Shown: positions 3,132 through 31,997 of the stretch, piece after piece | Numbering within the stretch: the first letter of the stretch is position 1 | How the letters are laid out: each line of letters starts with the position of its first letter | NCBI GenBank assembly: GCA_028684435.1 | Contig: JAQUFX010000002.1 | Span: forward strand, 1 to 41,171 | Direction: 5' to 3' | Source of the DNA: Bacilli bacterium | Lineage (GTDB): Bacteria; Bacillota_I; Bacilli_A; RF39; UBA660 | DNA: 41,171 nt | Program-made: the position numbers and the translations under genes | Notes under the pieces: generated by a model | What the model was told of the DNA's origin: nothing | Database searches by the model: none | Seen by the model: only the letters and a program-made list of their open reading frames with translations

Positions 3132-4049
3132 ATGAAAAAAAGATTTATAGCTAGGAAGAAACCTAATTTTAAAATATTAAAAATAATAATATGTCTTTTT
3201 ATTATTTATCTAACTTGTTTTTTAACGGTTAAATTTTTATTTAAAAGTCAAATTAAAATAAGTGATGAAAAAAGAGTTAATGAATATTTAGCTATTGCGT
3301 CTAATAATTTAATTGGAGAAATTTCAATAATTGATTTACTAAATATGAATTTAATAAGTCCTGATACATTTTTAAAATTATCTTTTAGTAGCTTTAAAAA
3401 GTTAAAATATAAAGACCAAAATAAAGCTATAAAAGCAAGTAAAGAAATAAAAGATCCCATTATTTATATTTATAATACACATCAAAGTGAAAATTATGAT
3501 CCAGGCACATTAAGTATCTATAATATTACTCCTACCGTATATATGGCTTCTATTATGTTGCAAAAAGCATTAGAAAAAAAAGATATTTATTCGGTAGTGG
3601 AAGAAGCTGATATAAAATCAATCTTAAATATCAATAATTTGACCTACAGTGATTCTTATCAAGCATCAAGGTTATTATTAAATGAAGCAATAAAAAAATA
3701 TCCTTCGGTAAAATATTTTATTGATATTCATCGCGATAGTGTAACTGATAGATATGTCGAAGATGATAAATCTTATGCTAAATTAATGTTTGTTATTGGA
3801 ATGAATCATGAAAATTATTTGCAAAATGAAAAATTAATGATTAGACTATATGATTATATAAAAGAAAATAAATCTGGGATTATTAAAAATAATTATTATG
3901 GGAAAAATAGTATTTATAATCAAAACTTTAATGTTAATACCATTTTAATTGAAGTTGGAGGAGTAAAAAATACCATTGACGAGGTATATAATAGTGTTAG
4001 TATTTTAGCAGATGCTATCGAATTCATAGTAGGTGATGACAATGGATAA
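3132..4049 (+). CDS. spoIIP: Stage II sporulation protein P (SpoIIP-type amidase)
   Basis: N-terminal TM segment plus SpoIIP family motifs: IYIYNTHQSENY, FIDIHRDS and ILIEVGGVKNT. RBS AGGTGG lies 6 nt upstream. Confidence 0.85.
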   Translation: MKKRFIARKKPNFKILKIIICLFIIYLTCFLTVKFLFKSQIKISDEKRVNEYLAIASNNLIGEISIIDLLNMNLISPDTFLKLSFSSFKKLKYKDQNKAIKASKEIKDPIIYIYNTHQSENYDPGTLSIYNITPTVYMASIMLQKALEKKDIYSVVEEADIKSILNINNLTYSDSYQASRLLLNEAIKKYPSVKYFIDIHRDSVTDRYVEDDKSYAKLMFVIGMNHENYLQNEKLMIRLYDYIKENKSGIIKNNYYGKNSIYNQNFNVNTILIEVGGVKNTIDEVYNSVSILADAIEFIVGDDNG

Positions 4050-26540: not shown

Positions 26541-26567
26541 AAATCTCTATAATTTATAGAGATTTTT
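26540..26567. terminator. Bidirectional terminator between the AI-2E gene and gerM
   Basis: aaaatctctata / tatagagatttt form a perfect palindrome stem with a 3-nt loop, flanked by A- and T-runs. Confidence 0.6.
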
Positions 26568-27496
26568 TATAAAAAATACGTTTTAATAGTCAAATTATTT
26601 GTCATATACATTACGGTTTTGATGTTATAGTTTTCTTTAATTGATAAATTAATTGAATAAATTACACTTTCTATTAAATTACTGTTATTTAAATCATTAT
26701 ATAAGTCATCACTTAATTTAATTAATAAATATTCATCAGTTATTTCATAACTAATTTGTTTAGCATCATTTAAATAACTTATTAGATTTGTTTGATACAT
26801 TGCTTTACTTGTTAATTCATTTATTATAATTTCTATTTTATCTTTGTTTTGATTATTAATCATCGTTACTGGTACGTAATAATAATAATCTTTATATTTA
26901 TTTAAATAATAGATAGTTGTACTTACTGTACCTTTAAAATTAGTTACATCATAATATTTATTAATACCGTATCCTCTATCTAGAGTAGGTGGAAGTTTAT
27001 TTTTTGAATGAGGTAATTCATTTAATATAACATCTTCTACATAAATACTTACTTTATTAATATTTGGTAATCCAGTTAAAGAATAAACTATAGCACTTAT
27101 CATTTTATCTTCATTTTCTTTACTAATATTATAAAACTCTTCACTAAAATTTAGCTTTACTAAATCATTATCTATATCTACGGATAGTAATTTAGTTCCT
27201 TTTGGTATAATGGGAGTAAATCCTTCTTTTATATAAGAAGAAATTTTACTATTTATGGTTAAATAAGCTATAATTTCTCTTATTTTTTCAGTTGTTTCTT
27301 TTTTGTTAATGGCAACATTTACTCTTGATACATAATCATTATTATCAATTAAATAAATAGATACTTGGGGAATTTGATTATCTTTTTCATTTTTAATTTT
27401 ATGATTATCTTTTTTAGGAAATAAATATAAAATAAATAAAATAAATAAACAAGATAAAATTAAAAATATTTTTTTTGATAGATTTTTTTTAAGCAT
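26567..27496 (-). CDS. gerM: GerM-like sporulation/germination protein (two GerMN-type domains)
   Basis: N-terminal signal/anchor with a possible lipobox (LILSC). The GerMN-like pattern reads VSIYLID..YVSRV...IIPKGTKLLSVDIDNDLVKLNFSEEF...IVYSLTGLPNINKVSIYVE. Confidence 0.6.
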   Translation of the reverse strand: MLKKNLSKKIFLILSCLFILFILYLFPKKDNHKIKNEKDNQIPQVSIYLIDNNDYVSRVNVAINKKETTEKIREIIAYLTINSKISSYIKEGFTPIIPKGTKLLSVDIDNDLVKLNFSEEFYNISKENEDKMISAIVYSLTGLPNINKVSIYVEDVILNELPHSKNKLPPTLDRGYGINKYYDVTNFKGTVSTTIYYLNKYKDYYYYVPVTMINNQNKDKIEIIINELTSKAMYQTNLISYLNDAKQISYEITDEYLLIKLSDDLYNDLNNSNLIESVIYSINLSIKENYNIKTVMYMTNNLTIKTYFL

Positions 27497-27560
27497 TATT
27501 CAAACACCTCTATTCAAATTATATGATTCAATAATTAAAAAAAGTCGCTTAAAGCAACTT

Positions 27561-27767
27561 TTAAAGTGTTAATTCACCAATTTTTAATAATTCAATTATT
27601 GCACCAGCTCTTCCACTAACATTTAATTTTTGCATGACATTAGAAATATGATTACGGACCGTTTTTTCACTAATTCCTAATAATTCACTGATTTCTTTTG
27701 TCGTTTTATTTAATATTAAAAGATTAAACACTTCTTTTTCTCTAAGGGTTAGTATACTATTTTTCAA
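27561..27767 (-). CDS. gerE: GerE, LuxR-type HTH late mother-cell sporulation regulator
   Basis: 68 aa with a TTG start and GAGGGA 6 nt upstream. [61 protein letters not shown] is near-colinear with B. subtilis GerE ([61 protein letters not shown]). Confidence 0.88.
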   Translation of the reverse strand: [68 protein letters not shown]

Positions 27768-27800
27768 TTATGTTCCCTCACTTTCATAGTACCTTCATAA

Positions 27801-27827
27801 TATTTTATGAAGAAAGCTATTTAAAGT
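27801..27827 (-). promoter_or_regulatory. Sigma-K-type promoter candidate upstream of gerE (AC-16 nt-CATAaaaTA)
   Basis: The minus strand reads tcAC-tttaaatagctttctt-CATAAAATA. This matches the sigma-K consensus AC / CATAnnnTA with 16-nt spacing, about 33 nt upstream of the TTG start. B. subtilis gerE is sigma-K dependent. Confidence 0.35.
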
Positions 27828-27842
27828 GAGTTCTAAAGCCTA

Positions 27843-28337
27843 TTATTGATATTTAACTGTTATGTACATTTTTTCATCAAACTCTTTTTGAATAGTACGG
27901 ATTATATTATTAGCACTTTCATAAGAATTATCTTTTGCTGAAATAGTAACATTGATTTTATCATCTTTTATTTTAATAAAACTTTTTAAATTATAGGTTT
28001 TAAGAATTAAGGACTCTAATTCACTTTCTTTTCCTTTATTTAAATTAATATTAAGTAACTTTTCATAAGCATTATTTTTATCTTCGGCACTAGCTTTAGC
28101 ATCAAGTAAAGTTGATTGTAAATCTTCCATTTCGCTTAAAACGGCTTCATCATTTTCGACTCTTAAAGTTGCCAAAACATCATTTTCTGATATATTGGTG
28201 CTTACTTTATCACTTTCAGAATGTTTAGTATCTATGAGTGAAGAAAGATTTTCTCCTGGTAGAGCAACATAGTATACAGATAATACTAAAATAATACTAA
28301 ACAAAGTTAAAAACCATAAATTTTGTTTATTAATCAT
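27843..28337 (-). CDS. spoIIIAH: Stage III sporulation protein AH (SpoIIIAH/YscJ-FliF-like ring protein)
   Basis: MINKQNLWFLTLFSIILVLSVYYV matches the SpoIIIAH N-terminus (MLKKQTVWLLTMLSLVVVLSVYY). The C-terminal half (LRVENDEA...DKNNAYEKL...ELESLILK...DDKINVTISAKD) is colinear with the Bacillus protein. RBS is GGAGG. Confidence 0.8.
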   Translation of the reverse strand: MINKQNLWFLTLFSIILVLSVYYVALPGENLSSLIDTKHSESDKVSTNISENDVLATLRVENDEAVLSEMEDLQSTLLDAKASAEDKNNAYEKLLNINLNKGKESELESLILKTYNLKSFIKIKDDKINVTISAKDNSYESANNIIRTIQKEFDEKMYITVKYQ

Positions 28338-28602
28338 ACTTTATTAATCCTCCAATTAATAAAGTATATTTATTATTTTAAAAAATAGTACAAATTAAAG
28401 GAATAAACTAATAGCATATATTAGTATTTTTAATAAAATTTTAAATGACAATGTATACCTCCTTTTAATTATGCCTCATTTGAAGGTATCCCTTCAATTT
28501 TATTTGTTATATAAAATATTTTATTTCCTTTTTTTAAATTTAAAAAATAACTTAAAGGAAAATCGATTAACTTTTACAACAAATAATATTGAAAGGAAGA
28601 TT

Positions 28603-30564
28603 ATGAATAAGTATTTTATTAAACAACAAGATGAAAGTGATTGCGGAGCATGCTCGTTACTAAGTATAATTTTATTTTATAAAGGATATATACCTTTAGA
28701 AATAATTAAAATAGATACTCTTACAAATGTAAATGGAACCAATTTTTTATATATAAAAAAAGCTAGCGAAAAATATGGTTTTGACGTAACTGGCAAATAT
28801 ACTTATGATTTAAATAATATTAAATTACCTTGTATTGCACACTTAAATATTGAAGGTTATAATCATTTTGTTGTAATTTTTAATGTAGATAATAAGATAA
28901 CTTATATGGACCCTAGTACTGGAAAAGTTATAATGGATAAAAAAGATTTTGTTAATATCTTCACTGGAAATATTTTAGAGTTTATACCGAAAGGTAAAAT
29001 TATTAAATATGAAAAGAATAAAATATTTAAAAATATTTTAAAAAATATTTATCTAAATAATATAACAAGTATAATATTATTGTTTGTACTTTTAATATTA
29101 TTAATTATCTTTTCATTAGGGGCTAATTTTAATTTAATATTAATTAAAAATAATAAATTAATATGTTTAGTTTTTATAATATTAATTATTAAAGTAGTAA
29201 TAAATTATTTAAAAAATATAATTATGTCTCATTTAAATAAAAATATAAATAAAAGTTTACTAGAAAATTATATTAACCATATCTTTAATCTTCCTTTAAA
29301 ATATTTGCAATTAAAAAAACCTGGCGATTTAATTAATAGAATTAATGACTTACATAATATAAAAGACTTCTTTTCAAATGTAGTGATTGAATTATTTGTA
29401 AATATAATATTTTTTATTGGTTCTTTAATTTTATTATTTATTTTAAATAGTACTTTAACTTTAATTTTATTATCTTTAGTTTTGGTTTATTTAGTAGTTA
29501 TAATATATTTAAATAAAGATTTATATCTAAAAATTATTAATGTAATCGATTCAGATAATAAATTTATGGATTTAGTATTAGAATATTTAAATAAAATAAA
29601 TACGATTAAAGTATTAAAAAGTAACTATTTTATAAATAATATAAATACAAATATTAATAATAATCTAAATAATAAATTAAATCTTGATCTTAAAATAAAT
29701 AAAATTGATTTAGTTAAAAACTCTATAGAAGAAATAATGTTAGTATTAATATTAATAATTCATTATAAATTAAATAATGATTATATGATGATGATAATAT
29801 ATATAAGTGTTTATAATTATTTTATCCAAAGTGTAAAATTTTTTGTAAATATCATACCTAATTATTTTTATTTCAAAGATATTTACAAACGAATTAAAAG
29901 TATCTTTGATCTAGAAAATATTAAAAATAATATTAATAGATATAATGATGGTGATATAATAGTAAATAATTTAAGTTATTCTTATAATAATATTAATAAA
30001 ATATTTAATAATTTTAATTTAAAAATTAAAAAAGGAGAAAAAGTATTACTTCAAGGTTCAAATGGAAGTGGAAAAAGTACTTTATTAGGTCTTTTTGTTG
30101 GATTAGATGATGACTATACTGGTACCATAAAAATTAGCCCAAATATATGTTATATAGAGCAAAATAGTCAGTTATTTAGTGATTCGATATTAAATAATAT
30201 TATATTAGATAAAAAGTATGATAAATTAAAATTTAAAAAAATAGCAAAATTAACATTACTTAATGAGATAATTAAAAATAAACCAAATGGATATAATACT
30301 AATTTAAATTCTATAATTAATTTAAGTGGCGGTGAAAAACAAAAAATTATTATAGCAAGGGGTTTATATAATGATTTTAATATTTTAATTATGGATGAAT
30401 CACTTAGTGAAATATCCAAAAAAATTAGAAAAAAATTATTGCTTAATATTTTTAAATATTATCAAAATAAAACGATTATTTATGTTAGTCATCAAGATGA
30501 AAAAATTAATTTTAATCAAAAGATTTATTTAATTGCTAGAAAGGATAAATATGTTAACAGATAA
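28603..30564 (+). CDS. Bacteriocin-processing ABC exporter with N-terminal C39 cysteine peptidase domain (SunT/LagD/ComA type)
   Basis: The C39 motifs are QQDESDCGACSLLSII (catalytic Cys), NHFVVIF (His) and YMDPSTG. A 6-TM ABC membrane domain follows. The NBD carries Walker A GSNGSGKST, signature LSGGEKQK, Walker B ILIMDES and H-loop VSHQ. I prefer ATG 28603 (RBS AAAGGAAG). The track's 44-aa N-terminal extension from 28471 runs through a hairpin and a promoter-like region. Confidence 0.9.
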   Translation: MNKYFIKQQDESDCGACSLLSIILFYKGYIPLEIIKIDTLTNVNGTNFLYIKKASEKYGFDVTGKYTYDLNNIKLPCIAHLNIEGYNHFVVIFNVDNKITYMDPSTGKVIMDKKDFVNIFTGNILEFIPKGKIIKYEKNKIFKNILKNIYLNNITSIILLFVLLILLIIFSLGANFNLILIKNNKLICLVFIILIIKVVINYLKNIIMSHLNKNINKSLLENYINHIFNLPLKYLQLKKPGDLINRINDLHNIKDFFSNVVIELFVNIIFFIGSLILLFILNSTLTLILLSLVLVYLVVIIYLNKDLYLKIINVIDSDNKFMDLVLEYLNKINTIKVLKSNYFINNINTNINNNLNNKLNLDLKINKIDLVKNSIEEIMLVLILIIHYKLNNDYMMMIIYISVYNYFIQSVKFFVNIIPNYFYFKDIYKRIKSIFDLENIKNNINRYNDGDIIVNNLSYSYNNINKIFNNFNLKIKKGEKVLLQGSNGSGKSTLLGLFVGLDDDYTGTIKISPNICYIEQNSQLFSDSILNNIILDKKYDKLKFKKIAKLTLLNEIIKNKPNGYNTNLNSIINLSGGEKQKIIIARGLYNDFNILIMDESLSEISKKIRKKLLLNIFKYYQNKTIIYVSHQDEKINFNQKIYLIARKDKYVNR

Positions 30565-30685
30565 TGAAATGTTAAATATTGAAGGTGGAAAATTATCTTG
30601 GGGTCTTGCTGGTGCACTTGGTGCATTTCTTACCTTATTAGCTGGAATGATAGATGGATATCTAAGACCTTTAAAGTGTAATTAA
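30551..30685 (+). CDS. Double-glycine-leader bacteriocin-like precursor A (44 aa; predicted 31-aa mature peptide)
   Basis: It is not in the ORF track. ATG 30551 follows GAAAGGA and overlaps the last 14 nt of the exporter gene. The product is MLTDNEMLNIEGG|KLSWGLAGALGAFLTLLAGMIDGYLRPLKCN. It has a GG leader with the EML-x-I-x-GG pattern and a small-residue (G/A) rich hydrophobic cationic core. Confidence 0.75.
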   Translation: MLTDNEMLNIEGGKLSWGLAGALGAFLTLLAGMIDGYLRPLKCN

Positions 30686-30843
30686 TGAAATTAGAAAATA
30701 CGGAAATGTTAAAAATAGTTGGAGGTATAAATATATCTGGAACATTACTAAATTCAATTGCTAAACTACTTAGTACCTTATTTGATATTGGTAGAGCGAT
30801 AGGTTCAGCTATAAGCATGTCTAAGTCTGGACGAAGATGTTAA
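30685..30843 (+). CDS. Double-glycine-leader bacteriocin-like precursor B (52 aa; predicted 38-aa mature peptide)
   Basis: It is not in the ORF track. Its ATG overlaps the stop of peptide A (TAATG). The product is MKLENTEMLKIVGG|INISGTLLNSIAKLLSTLFDIGRAIGSAISMSKSGRRC. It has a GG leader and an amphipathic cationic core with GxxxG (GRAIG) and GxxxS. Confidence 0.75.
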   Translation: MKLENTEMLKIVGGINISGTLLNSIAKLLSTLFDIGRAIGSAISMSKSGRRC

Positions 30844-30848
30844 AAATG

Positions 30849-30869
30849 AAATATATTAAATATATTTTT
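30849..30869 (+). terminator. Weak AT-only hairpin with T-run after the peptide genes
   Basis: aaatata / tatattt form a 7-bp stem with a 5-nt loop, then TT. The structure is low in stability. Confidence 0.3.
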
Positions 30870-30902
30870 ACCATATATAAAAATTTAATGATATAATATT
30901 TA

Positions 30903-31997
30903 TTGGGTGAGTATGTGAATTCTAAAATTAAAAAAGTATTAGAAACATTAGAAAAAAATGGTTTTGAAGCTTATGTAGTAGGGGGTTATGTAAGAGATAC
31001 CTTACTAAATATTAATACTACTGATGTAGATATATGTACTAATGCTTTACCTAAAGATATTATTAAAATTTTTAATAAAAATGGGAGTAATATTAATTAT
31101 GGATCAATTTCTTTAAATGATGGCAAATATAATTTTGATATTACTACCTTCCGAAGCGAATCAAATTATGATAAAAGAAAACCATTAAATATTAAATATA
31201 TTAATGATTTAATTATTGATTTACAAAGAAGGGATTTTACCATTAATTCTTTATGTATGAATAAAGAAGGAGAAATTATTAATCTGCTTGGCGGACTAAA
31301 TGATTTAAATCAAAAATCTATTAGAATTATAGGTGATACAAGTAAAAAATTAACTGAAGATCCATTAAGAATATTAAGAGCGATTAGATTTTCAATAACT
31401 TTAGGTTTTAAATTAGATAATGAAATAATAACGTTTATTAATAATAATAAGTCTTTAATTAAAACTTTAAGCTATACAAGAAAATATGAAGAACTTAATC
31501 GTATATTTTCTTCTAAAAATGCTTATTTAGGGTTAAAAATATTAAAAGATCTAAATCTTTTAGAAGAACTTGAAATAAAGTATGATAATATTAAAGTAGT
31601 TAATGATGTTTTAGGCATTTGGGCTCAAATTGATTATAGTGATAATTATATTTTTACTAAAAGTAGTTCCGAAGTTATAAAAAATATTCGTGAAATTATT
31701 TCAAAAGGAATAATTGATAATAATGTTCTTTTTAAATATAATTTATATATATCAATGGTTGCAGGGCAAATTTTAGGAATTGATTATAAAATCATTTCTA
31801 AAATGCATGCTGATTTAAAAATAAAATCAGCAAAAGAGTTAGATATTAATTCTAAAGATATTTTTAATGTTTTAAATATCAAACCATCTCCTCAAGTAAA
31901 AGAAATAATTAAAGATTTAATAGATCAAGTATTAAATAACAATTTAGAAAACAATTATGATAATTTAAAAAAATATATATTAAAAAAATGGAAGTGA
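30903..31997 (+). CDS. cca: CCA-adding enzyme (tRNA nucleotidyltransferase)
   Basis: The polymerase-beta head domain reads VVGGYVRDTLL...DVDI...RRDFTINS...DPLRILRAIRF. The start is uncertain: TTG 30903 (track) or GTG 30915, preceded by GGGTGAG. A TGaTATAAT box lies at 30889-30897. Confidence 0.85.
   Translation: MGEYVNSKIKKVLETLEKNGFEAYVVGGYVRDTLLNINTTDVDICTNALPKDIIKIFNKNGSNINYGSISLNDGKYNFDITTFRSESNYDKRKPLNIKYINDLIIDLQRRDFTINSLCMNKEGEIINLLGGLNDLNQKSIRIIGDTSKKLTEDPLRILRAIRFSITLGFKLDNEIITFINNNKSLIKTLSYTRKYEELNRIFSSKNAYLGLKILKDLNLLEELEIKYDNIKVVNDVLGIWAQIDYSDNYIFTKSSSEVIKNIREIISKGIIDNNVLFKYNLYISMVAGQILGIDYKIISKMHADLKIKSAKELDINSKDIFNVLNIKPSPQVKEIIKDLIDQVLNNNLENNYDNLKKYILKKWK

Follow-up and report, generated by a model that had tools for sequence, protein, structure and literature searches.

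In class IIb (two-peptide) bacteriocin operons, the two structural genes always come with an immunity gene, and an accessory protein is encoded nearby (PMC2850506). The prepeptides carry double-glycine leaders of 15-30 residues, a dedicated ATP-binding cassette (ABC) transporter both cleaves the leader and exports the product, and the two peptides are needed in approximately equal amounts if antibacterial activity is to be optimal; once mature, they are cationic, helical, 30-50 residues long, contain GxxxG or GxxxG-like motifs and act by membrane permeabilisation (PMC2850506). Here we describe a locus on contig JAQUFX010000002.1 of a Bacilli bacterium (assembly GCA_028684435.1), of which we analysed positions 1 to 41,171 of the forward strand, referred to below as the window. 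Two short plus-strand genes, which we call pepA and pepB, lie at the 3' end of a gene for one of the peptidase-containing ABC transporters (PCATs). Like lactococcin G, plantaricin EF/JK, lactacin F and ABP-118 (PMC2850506), the locus combines unlike, adjacent prepeptides with double-glycine (GG) leaders and an exporter that carries a C39 peptidase domain. We regard the pair as a candidate for a class IIb-like two-peptide bacteriocin whose sequence family is new, with a probability of roughly 0.6.

The pepA gene extends from 30551 to 30685 (ATG at 30551, stop codon at 30683-30685) and encodes a 44-aa prepeptide, while pepB extends from 30685 to 30843 (ATG at 30685, stop codon at 30841-30843) and encodes one of 52 aa; both open reading frames (ORFs) are exactly as an earlier note on this DNA had placed and translated them. 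The stop codon of pepA and the ATG of pepB have one A in common (TAATG), giving a 1-nt overlap, and because the last A of the one is the first base of the other, we take the two genes to be translationally coupled. On the other side, the last 14 nt of the exporter ORF, which runs to 30564, lie within pepA, and a Shine-Dalgarno-like AGAAAGGA (plus strand, 30538-30545), read from the sequence, lies within the 3' end of the exporter gene with a 5-nt spacer to the pepA ATG. This layout is best explained by a single operon in which translation of the exporter gene, pepA and pepB is coupled. Directly 3' of pepB, at 30849-30867 of the plus strand, the sequence reads as an AT-only hairpin (AAATATAT-TAA-ATATATTT, then TT), possibly a weak terminator; it does not appear in the output of our terminator scan, which demands at least three G-C pairs.

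The leader of pepA, MLTDNEMLNIEGG, is 13 residues long (30551-30589) and precedes a predicted core, KLSWGLAGALGAFLTLLAGMIDGYLRPLKCN, of 31 aa (30590-30682), and that of pepB, MKLENTEMLKIVGG, has 14 residues (30685-30726) and precedes a predicted core, INISGTLLNSIAKLLSTLFDIGRAIGSAISMSKSGRRC, of 38 aa (30727-30840). Both leaders have glycines at -1 and -2, Ile at -4, Met at -7, Glu at -8 and Leu at -12, in agreement with the canonical GG leaders that had been claimed for them. When all 41 kb were scanned in six frames for [ED][LIVMF]xx[LIVMF]xG[GAS] on short ORFs, the leader motif was confined to pepA and pepB. An alternative TTG start of pepA at 30533 would give a 19-residue leader, but it has no ribosome-binding site and its product is not in the protein collection that we searched.

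The two cores are cationic, as had been noted, and differ in character. That of A has a charge of +2 and a grand average of hydropathy of 0.73 and reads as a hydrophobic, transmembrane-like helix, and that of B has a charge of +4 and is amphipathic (hydrophobic moment up to 0.58). Small-xxx-small motifs are found in both (GLAGA, AGALG and GALGA in A; GRAIG, GSAIS and SAISMS in B), and the tail DG..RP..C of the A core is invariant. For pepB, AlphaFold2 run on a 119-sequence alignment predicts one long helix over residues 18-48, with a block-mean predicted local distance difference test score of up to 96, and this core helix finishes in a Cys. The pair thereby resembles known class IIb peptides in having cationic, helical cores of 30-40 residues with GxxxG-type motifs.

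That these are genes is evident when the window is compared with six lineages that are related to it and share its gene layout. In the plus frames of pepA and pepB, ratios of nonsynonymous to synonymous substitution rates (dN/dS) range over 0.09-0.39, a gene differs by as many as 27 synonymous changes, and dS is above 1 for the more distant pairs; both are real genes under purifying selection. A 62-aa ORF on the minus strand (30630-30818) overlaps both, and one could suppose that it is the real gene and that pepA and pepB are chance ORFs; the only point in favour of this is that the antisense ORF is longer. Its ATG, however, is ATA in all six relatives, stops interrupt its frame in three of these, and its protein is not found in a collection of 15 billion proteins in which both plus-strand peptides are found, while gene callers predict the plus-strand genes in every related contig. 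We therefore rule the minus-strand ORF out as a gene and give that reading next to no credence. The earlier note had called this ORF spurious and had named conservation of the plus-strand frames in related genomes as one of its checks, and its expectation is borne out, with the plus frames kept and the minus ORF broken in relatives.

The exporter gene (plus strand, 28603-30564) encodes 653 aa with an N-terminal C39 peptidase, a transmembrane and an ATPase domain. Although the ORF track begins it at 28471, we prefer the ATG at 28603 (MNKYF...), which is preceded by GAAAGGAAG, as the most likely start because the proteins of relatives are called at 653 aa. All three Pfam domains that define a PCAT are present above their gathering thresholds (Peptidase_C39, PF03412, 8.5e-23; ABC_membrane, PF00664, 1.2e-20; ABC_tran, PF00005, 6.2e-20). 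The best match of solved structure is PCAT1 of Clostridium thermocellum (4RY2, full-length, E 4.6e-50), a bacteriocin exporter like ComA of Streptococcus, which also aligns over its full length (1.8e-43); the window exporter shares their C39 and Walker/signature motifs but is shorter, at about 653 aa vs 717-730 aa. The C39 segments DCGA(C), HFVV and DP align with the Cys, His and Asp motifs of PCAT1, and Walker A (GSNGSGKST), signature (LSGGEKQ) and Walker B (ILIMDE) motifs are kept, so that the adjoining C39-ABC exporter described in the earlier note is a full PCAT and would, judging by its motifs, provide the dedicated leader-cleaving transporter of a class IIb system. It scores at most 230 bits with the specific PCAT models of NCBIfam, whose cut-offs are 500-853, and because these scores fall far under every specific cut-off we place it in a divergent PCAT subfamily. 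As a separate observation, GC content falls to 12.6% at window positions 29001-30000, within the transmembrane and linker part of the exporter gene, vs about 24% for the window on average.

Homologues of both peptides are numerous. The pepB family comprises 240 clusters at 50% identity in a profile search and at least 1,103 clusters at 90% identity in a search with the 119-sequence alignment, and among the matches listed none has a functional name. Its consensus consists of a GG leader, (I/L)S(G/A)TL(L/I)N(S/A)I, (D/E)(L/I)GRx(L/I)GSAIRR and a Cys in the last few residues, with G14 and C52 invariant among the 119 sequences. In 16 diverse homologues of pepA, a hydrophobic helix that is variable and has many small residues is followed by an invariant tail G..DG..RP..C, and G12, G13, G32, D35, G36, R39, P40 and C43 are invariant.

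We collected 78 loci from genomes and metagenomes (the metagenome scan was run with a subset of the pepB sequences), 75 of which include upstream sequence. In 72 of these 75 pepA lies directly upstream of pepB, which makes the two unlike GG-leader genes look like an obligate pair, and a same-strand PCAT gene lies upstream in 59 of 61 loci. The three exceptions to the pairing are L032 (about 3671-4000), in which pepA is interrupted by an inserted element and survives as the remnant ...GYVRPLKCN, L071 (about 3660-3990), in which pepA is broken by stops, and L043 (600-1311), in which an additional gene separates pepA from pepB. The inserted element of L032 ends in a long ORF, which we take to be the C-terminus of a recombinase. 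Natural read-through fusions of A and B occur in other lineages (P0086 and P0201). Across 55 unique A/B pairs, with 53 complete B sequences, mature A has exactly one Cys in 51/55 and mature B in 52/53, in each case near-invariant and C-terminal; the median mature lengths are 31 (A) and 39 (B) residues, and both peptides are mostly cationic.

In the majority of distant relatives the cassette has five genes, encoding the exporter, a protein with one transmembrane (TM) segment, pepA, pepB and a further small protein, pepC. The one-TM protein is 133-154 aa long (about 145), has a single N-terminal TM helix and is encoded between the exporter and pepA (at 2826-3275 in L001, 1912-2343 in L017, 5416-5847 in L020 and 391-843 in L033, each a full-length, sub-threshold match to NCBIfam model NF045999). 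The pepC gene overlaps the pepB stop codon and encodes a hydrophobic protein of 49-60 aa (3584-3742 in L001, 1765-1923 in L016, about 6163-6324 in L020, about 6154-6318 in L022, and many of L030-L065); it is frequently overlooked by gene callers. Along its whole length, pepC shows homology to pepB (hhalign probability 93%, E 3.6e-7), but the GG site has been lost. The N-terminal half forms a membrane anchor, the motif G...G(S/T)..R is retained, and a Cys near the C-terminus is present in about three quarters of the sequences found. pepC, which co-occurs with the one-TM protein, is a candidate immunity module. Both are encoded at 19 loci, neither at 14, the one-TM protein alone at 5 and pepC alone at 1 (Fisher p 1e-5, not corrected for phylogeny), and the two are gained or lost together. 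In L026, a third, unrelated double-glycine peptide, MKELENNELKEINGG|CLWSKKIIHAVTKLIYGFINRLAII (3402-3524), is encoded between pepB and pepC.

In contrast to this five-gene form, the cassette of the window and of its closer relatives is limited to the exporter, pepA and pepB. This reduced architecture is common to at least seven lineages, whose pepB peptides are 65-96% identical, and a separate lineage (L018/L019) is likewise reduced to three genes, all intact. In the window, the overlap of exporter and pepA leaves no space for a gene between them, and the roughly 60 nt from the pepB stop to cca hold no ORF. A tblastn search of the 41 kb with the accessory and pepC proteins of relatives gave chance-level matches only. 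The window locus is best explained as an ancestral five-gene cassette that has been reduced to three genes, and in its five-gene form this cassette is widespread in uncultured low-GC Bacilli.

With an exporter, an accessory-like protein, two peptides and a small membrane protein, the relatives have the gene complement of class IIb operons (PMC2850506), although their immunity candidate, pepC, is a paralogue of peptide B, which is unlike class IIb. Further differences are that the structural genes are downstream of the exporter within one coupled operon and that each peptide has one near-invariant C-terminal Cys. The HlyD-like accessory proteins ComB and LcnD are about 450 aa long, unlike the accessory-like protein of the relatives with its roughly 145 aa. 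The one-TM protein weakly resembles Mycoplasma MAG1140 (NF045999), to which it has sub-threshold matches in 4 of 16 cases (E 3.6e-6 to 4e-3), and the window exporter matches the model of the Mycoplasma PCAT Mbov_0121 (NF045998) with 228 bits, equal to its scores with generic bacteriocin-exporter models. All of these scores are below the cut-offs of 35 (NF045999) and 500 (NF045998) bits, and the one-TM protein is not encoded in the window. The consecutive numbers of NF045998 and NF045999 are a hint that Mollicutes may have a related cassette; a literature search on Mbov_0121 and MAG1140 found nothing informative.

Exact copies of both peptides are in the NCBI collection, pepA as MDD2409172.1 and MDD4406638.1 and pepB as MDD2409173.1 and MDD4406637.1, all from metagenome-assembled genomes (MAGs) named 'Bacilli bacterium'. 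The earlier note was thus mistaken in calling the genes unannotated; they were missing only from the ORF track on which its reader had relied. NCBI names pepA "class IIb bacteriocin, lactobin A/cerein 7B family" and pepB "hypothetical protein". The former name arises because pepA exceeds the cut-off of NCBIfam model TIGR03949 (24.9 vs 21.5 bits). The match, however, covers residues 2-36, that is, the leader and the Gly-rich hydrophobic stretch, and leaves out the DG..RP..C tail, which is specific to the pepA family. Moreover, TIGR03949 matches 13/16 pepA homologues at E <= 0.01, about as many as the lactococcin G-beta model NF038034 does (12/16), and also 19/119 pepB-family peptides, and among four homologues tested that of L018 scores 15.2 bits and falls under the cut-off. 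Because the tail is uncovered, NF038034 and pepB-family peptides match too and L018 falls short, we read the match as one of generic features and not as specific kinship. The window pepB has no match to TIGR03949 at E <= 1 and only a leader match in NCBIfam, with no family model, and neither pepA nor pepB has a Pfam match at E <= 1. The HMM (hidden Markov model) searches that the earlier note had proposed therefore leave its suggestion of a new family standing for pepB, with its at least 1,103 unnamed clusters and no model in Pfam or NCBIfam, and standing in part for pepA, which does pass TIGR03949, if through a generic match. A full-text search of a literature library for the core motifs returned nothing relevant.

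As we envisage it, pepA and pepB would be translated as prepeptides with GG leaders, in similar amounts as a result of the coupling. The C39 domain would bind the leader helix through the hydrophobic residues at -4, -7 and -12 and cut after Gly-Gly, and the transporter would then export the cores, A with 31 aa (about 3,264 Da) and B with 38 aa (about 3,966 Da). In the membrane of a target cell, A and B would pack helix to helix through their small-xxx-small motifs, and the resulting leakage would kill the cell. They would probably act on a conserved membrane-protein receptor; that short core motifs are so strictly kept suggests that a particular protein, and not just lipid, is the partner.

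Several features of the locus nevertheless weigh against a class IIb bacteriocin. The leaders, at 13 and 14 residues, are shorter than the 15-30 quoted for class IIb. An immunity gene was neither present in the operon nor found elsewhere in the 41-kb window, the operon has no accessory gene, and the window holds no HlyD-like or MAG1140-like gene. The cores have no detectable homology to any named member, the models matching only leader and Gly-rich segment, and the TIGR03949 match of pepA, generic as it is, does not amount to kinship. The mature cores are strongly conserved over deep divergence (NISGTLLN, GR.xGSAI and DG..RP..C), the pepB-family consensus has no match in plasmid and phage collections, and the cassette stands in conserved synteny among housekeeping and sporulation genes, a stable chromosomal setting more like that of a core function than of a strain-variable bacteriocin island. 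The adjacent pair, the GG-leader motif, the exporter and the GxxxG-type motifs, which the earlier note had seen as a class IIb signature, hold. An immunity gene and an accessory gene were looked for and are lacking, and it is for this reason that we do not file the pair as a proven class IIb member. A mobile-element origin was set aside because of the missing plasmid and phage matches.

These same features raise the question of whether the peptides, though exported by the PCAT, serve the producer itself, as small membrane or envelope-associated proteins or as a secreted signal in sporulation or at the cell surface, as a vertically inherited core function. For this speak the conserved chromosomal position, which in divergent lineages is next to spoIIIAH-like, gerM and GerE-like genes or else next to rpsU-yqeY-yabP-yqfD, the conserved mature sequences, the purifying selection that persists in the window lineage without an immunity gene, the missing plasmid and phage matches, and the precedent of MAM of Faecalibacterium, a non-bacteriocin PCAT substrate encoded near sporulation genes (PMC8836110). 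On the other hand, the locus adjoins no gene for a sensor kinase, a response regulator or another receptor, a transmembrane-like hydrophobic peptide together with a cationic amphipathic helix is a design typical of a pore-former and not of a pheromone, the full cassettes of relatives hold exactly the class IIb gene set, and the linkage to sporulation genes is not universal, with ftsA/ftsZ, rpe or tRNA synthetase genes as neighbours elsewhere. We consider a producer-serving role unlikely, although it deserves to be kept in mind; its more specific version, a quorum-sensing pheromone, we rejected because there is no kinase or regulator and because the cores are transmembrane-like or amphipathic. 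It is a good deal less probable that the locus is the decaying remnant of a bacteriocin cassette whose exporter, pepA and pepB are non-functional or being lost. The five-gene form of most distant relatives, of which the window form is two genes short, and the disruptions in L032, L071 and L043 would fit such decay, but all three genes of the window are intact, the exporter retains its catalytic and ATPase motifs, the reduced form is kept in at least seven lineages with dS above 1 and dN/dS still at 0.09-0.39, and the independently reduced L018/L019 lineage is intact too. Loci in which several bacteriocins share one PCAT are common, and L026 has an extra, unrelated GG-leader peptide in its cassette, which would be in keeping with pepA and pepB being two independent one-peptide (class IId) bacteriocins that share an exporter and are each active alone. 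We hold this, too, to be improbable: the same two unlike families stand adjacent and in the same order in 72/75 loci, each has a single near-invariant C-terminal Cys (A 51/55, B 52/53), and translational coupling favours equal production.

Returning to a two-peptide bacteriocin, we would like to put forward a more daring version of it, which we rate as doubtful. In this version A and B would be linked by a disulfide bond between their C-terminal Cys residues into a heterodimer of about 7,227.5 Da and thus form a two-chain bacteriocin held together covalently, pepC would confer immunity as a decoy, and lineages of the window type would have lost pepC and the one-TM protein together. As a leaderless, membrane-anchored paralogue of B, pepC would sit on the surface with which A or the receptor binds B. 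If the pair has been kept under selection after the loss of pepC and the one-TM protein, then either another route of self-protection exists or the heterodimer is non-lethal and serves the producer. A literature search for disulfide-linked two-peptide bacteriocins found no precedent.

Pairs of GG peptides are routine in genome mining; the size of this family, its conservation and the puzzle of its immunity are not. If the pair is active, it would be the founding member of a very large, uncharacterised family of two-peptide membrane-active peptides, the at least 1,103 pepB clusters of which stem from MAGs of uncultured low-GC Bacilli and from metagenome assemblies. The conserved cores, the one Cys per chain, the immunity candidate derived from a toxin and the minimal three-gene form with no recognisable immunity are all unusual for class IIb, and the three-gene form is small enough to be synthesised and expressed, which makes the questions of self-protection and of the receptor testable. 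If the pair is not antimicrobial, a conserved PCAT-exported pair with a role internal to the producer would be the more surprising outcome.

The 5' leader of the exporter gene (28465-28602) folds better than shuffled sequences (z = -3.06). It contains a plus-strand hairpin, TTGAAGG-TATC-CCTTCAA followed by a T-run (28480-28507), which is conserved in relatives and in L014 is changed to GAGAG/CTCTC. The 3' arm of this hairpin is able to pair alternatively with the ribosome-binding region of the exporter, and the fold of minimum energy and the consensus fold both have CCCUUCAA paired with that region, UUGAAAGG, instead. From these folds, the leader may act as an attenuator or as a switch by which the ribosome-binding site is concealed. 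A conserved, hydrophobic minus-strand micro-ORF of 17-18 aa, (M/L)SFKILLKILIYAISLFL (28395-28451), is located in the interval that separates the spoIIIAH-like gene from the exporter gene and has GGAGG as a strong ribosome-binding site; L002, L007 and L011 retain it, and L014 (MFAIFMKIVIYAISLFL) and L015 (MFKIIIKIVIYAIGLLL) have it with conservative changes.

The rest of the window is housekeeping, with genes for an XerC/D-like recombinase, PPDK, an AI-2E transporter, cca, dnaD, PBP1 and RecU, as well as EngB, pseudopilins, EngA, GerM, a GerE-like regulator and a SpoIIIAH-like protein. No kinase, response regulator or Abi protein is encoded in it, nor anything else that would point to signalling, and an Rfam scan of the window returned two tRNAs only. 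Divergent from the exporter, on the minus strand at 26567-28337, are the genes for the SpoIIIAH-like protein (164 aa), a 68-aa GerE-like helix-turn-helix protein (27561-27767) and a GerM-like protein; the other spoIIIA genes are not nearby. The adjacency of the spoIIIAH-like gene and the exporter holds even in the distant L001, whose downstream neighbours differ, and in other relatives the neighbours are rpsU-yqeY-yabP-yqfD. On the far side of the operon, a promoter-like TTACCA-18-TATAAT with an upstream TG (plus strand, 30868-30897, a consensus match) stands before cca (30903-31997), although the 36 promoter-like sites in the window vs 32.8 expected from shuffles make such counts uninformative in AT-rich DNA. 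Its position suggests that cca may be transcribed separately from the exporter operon.

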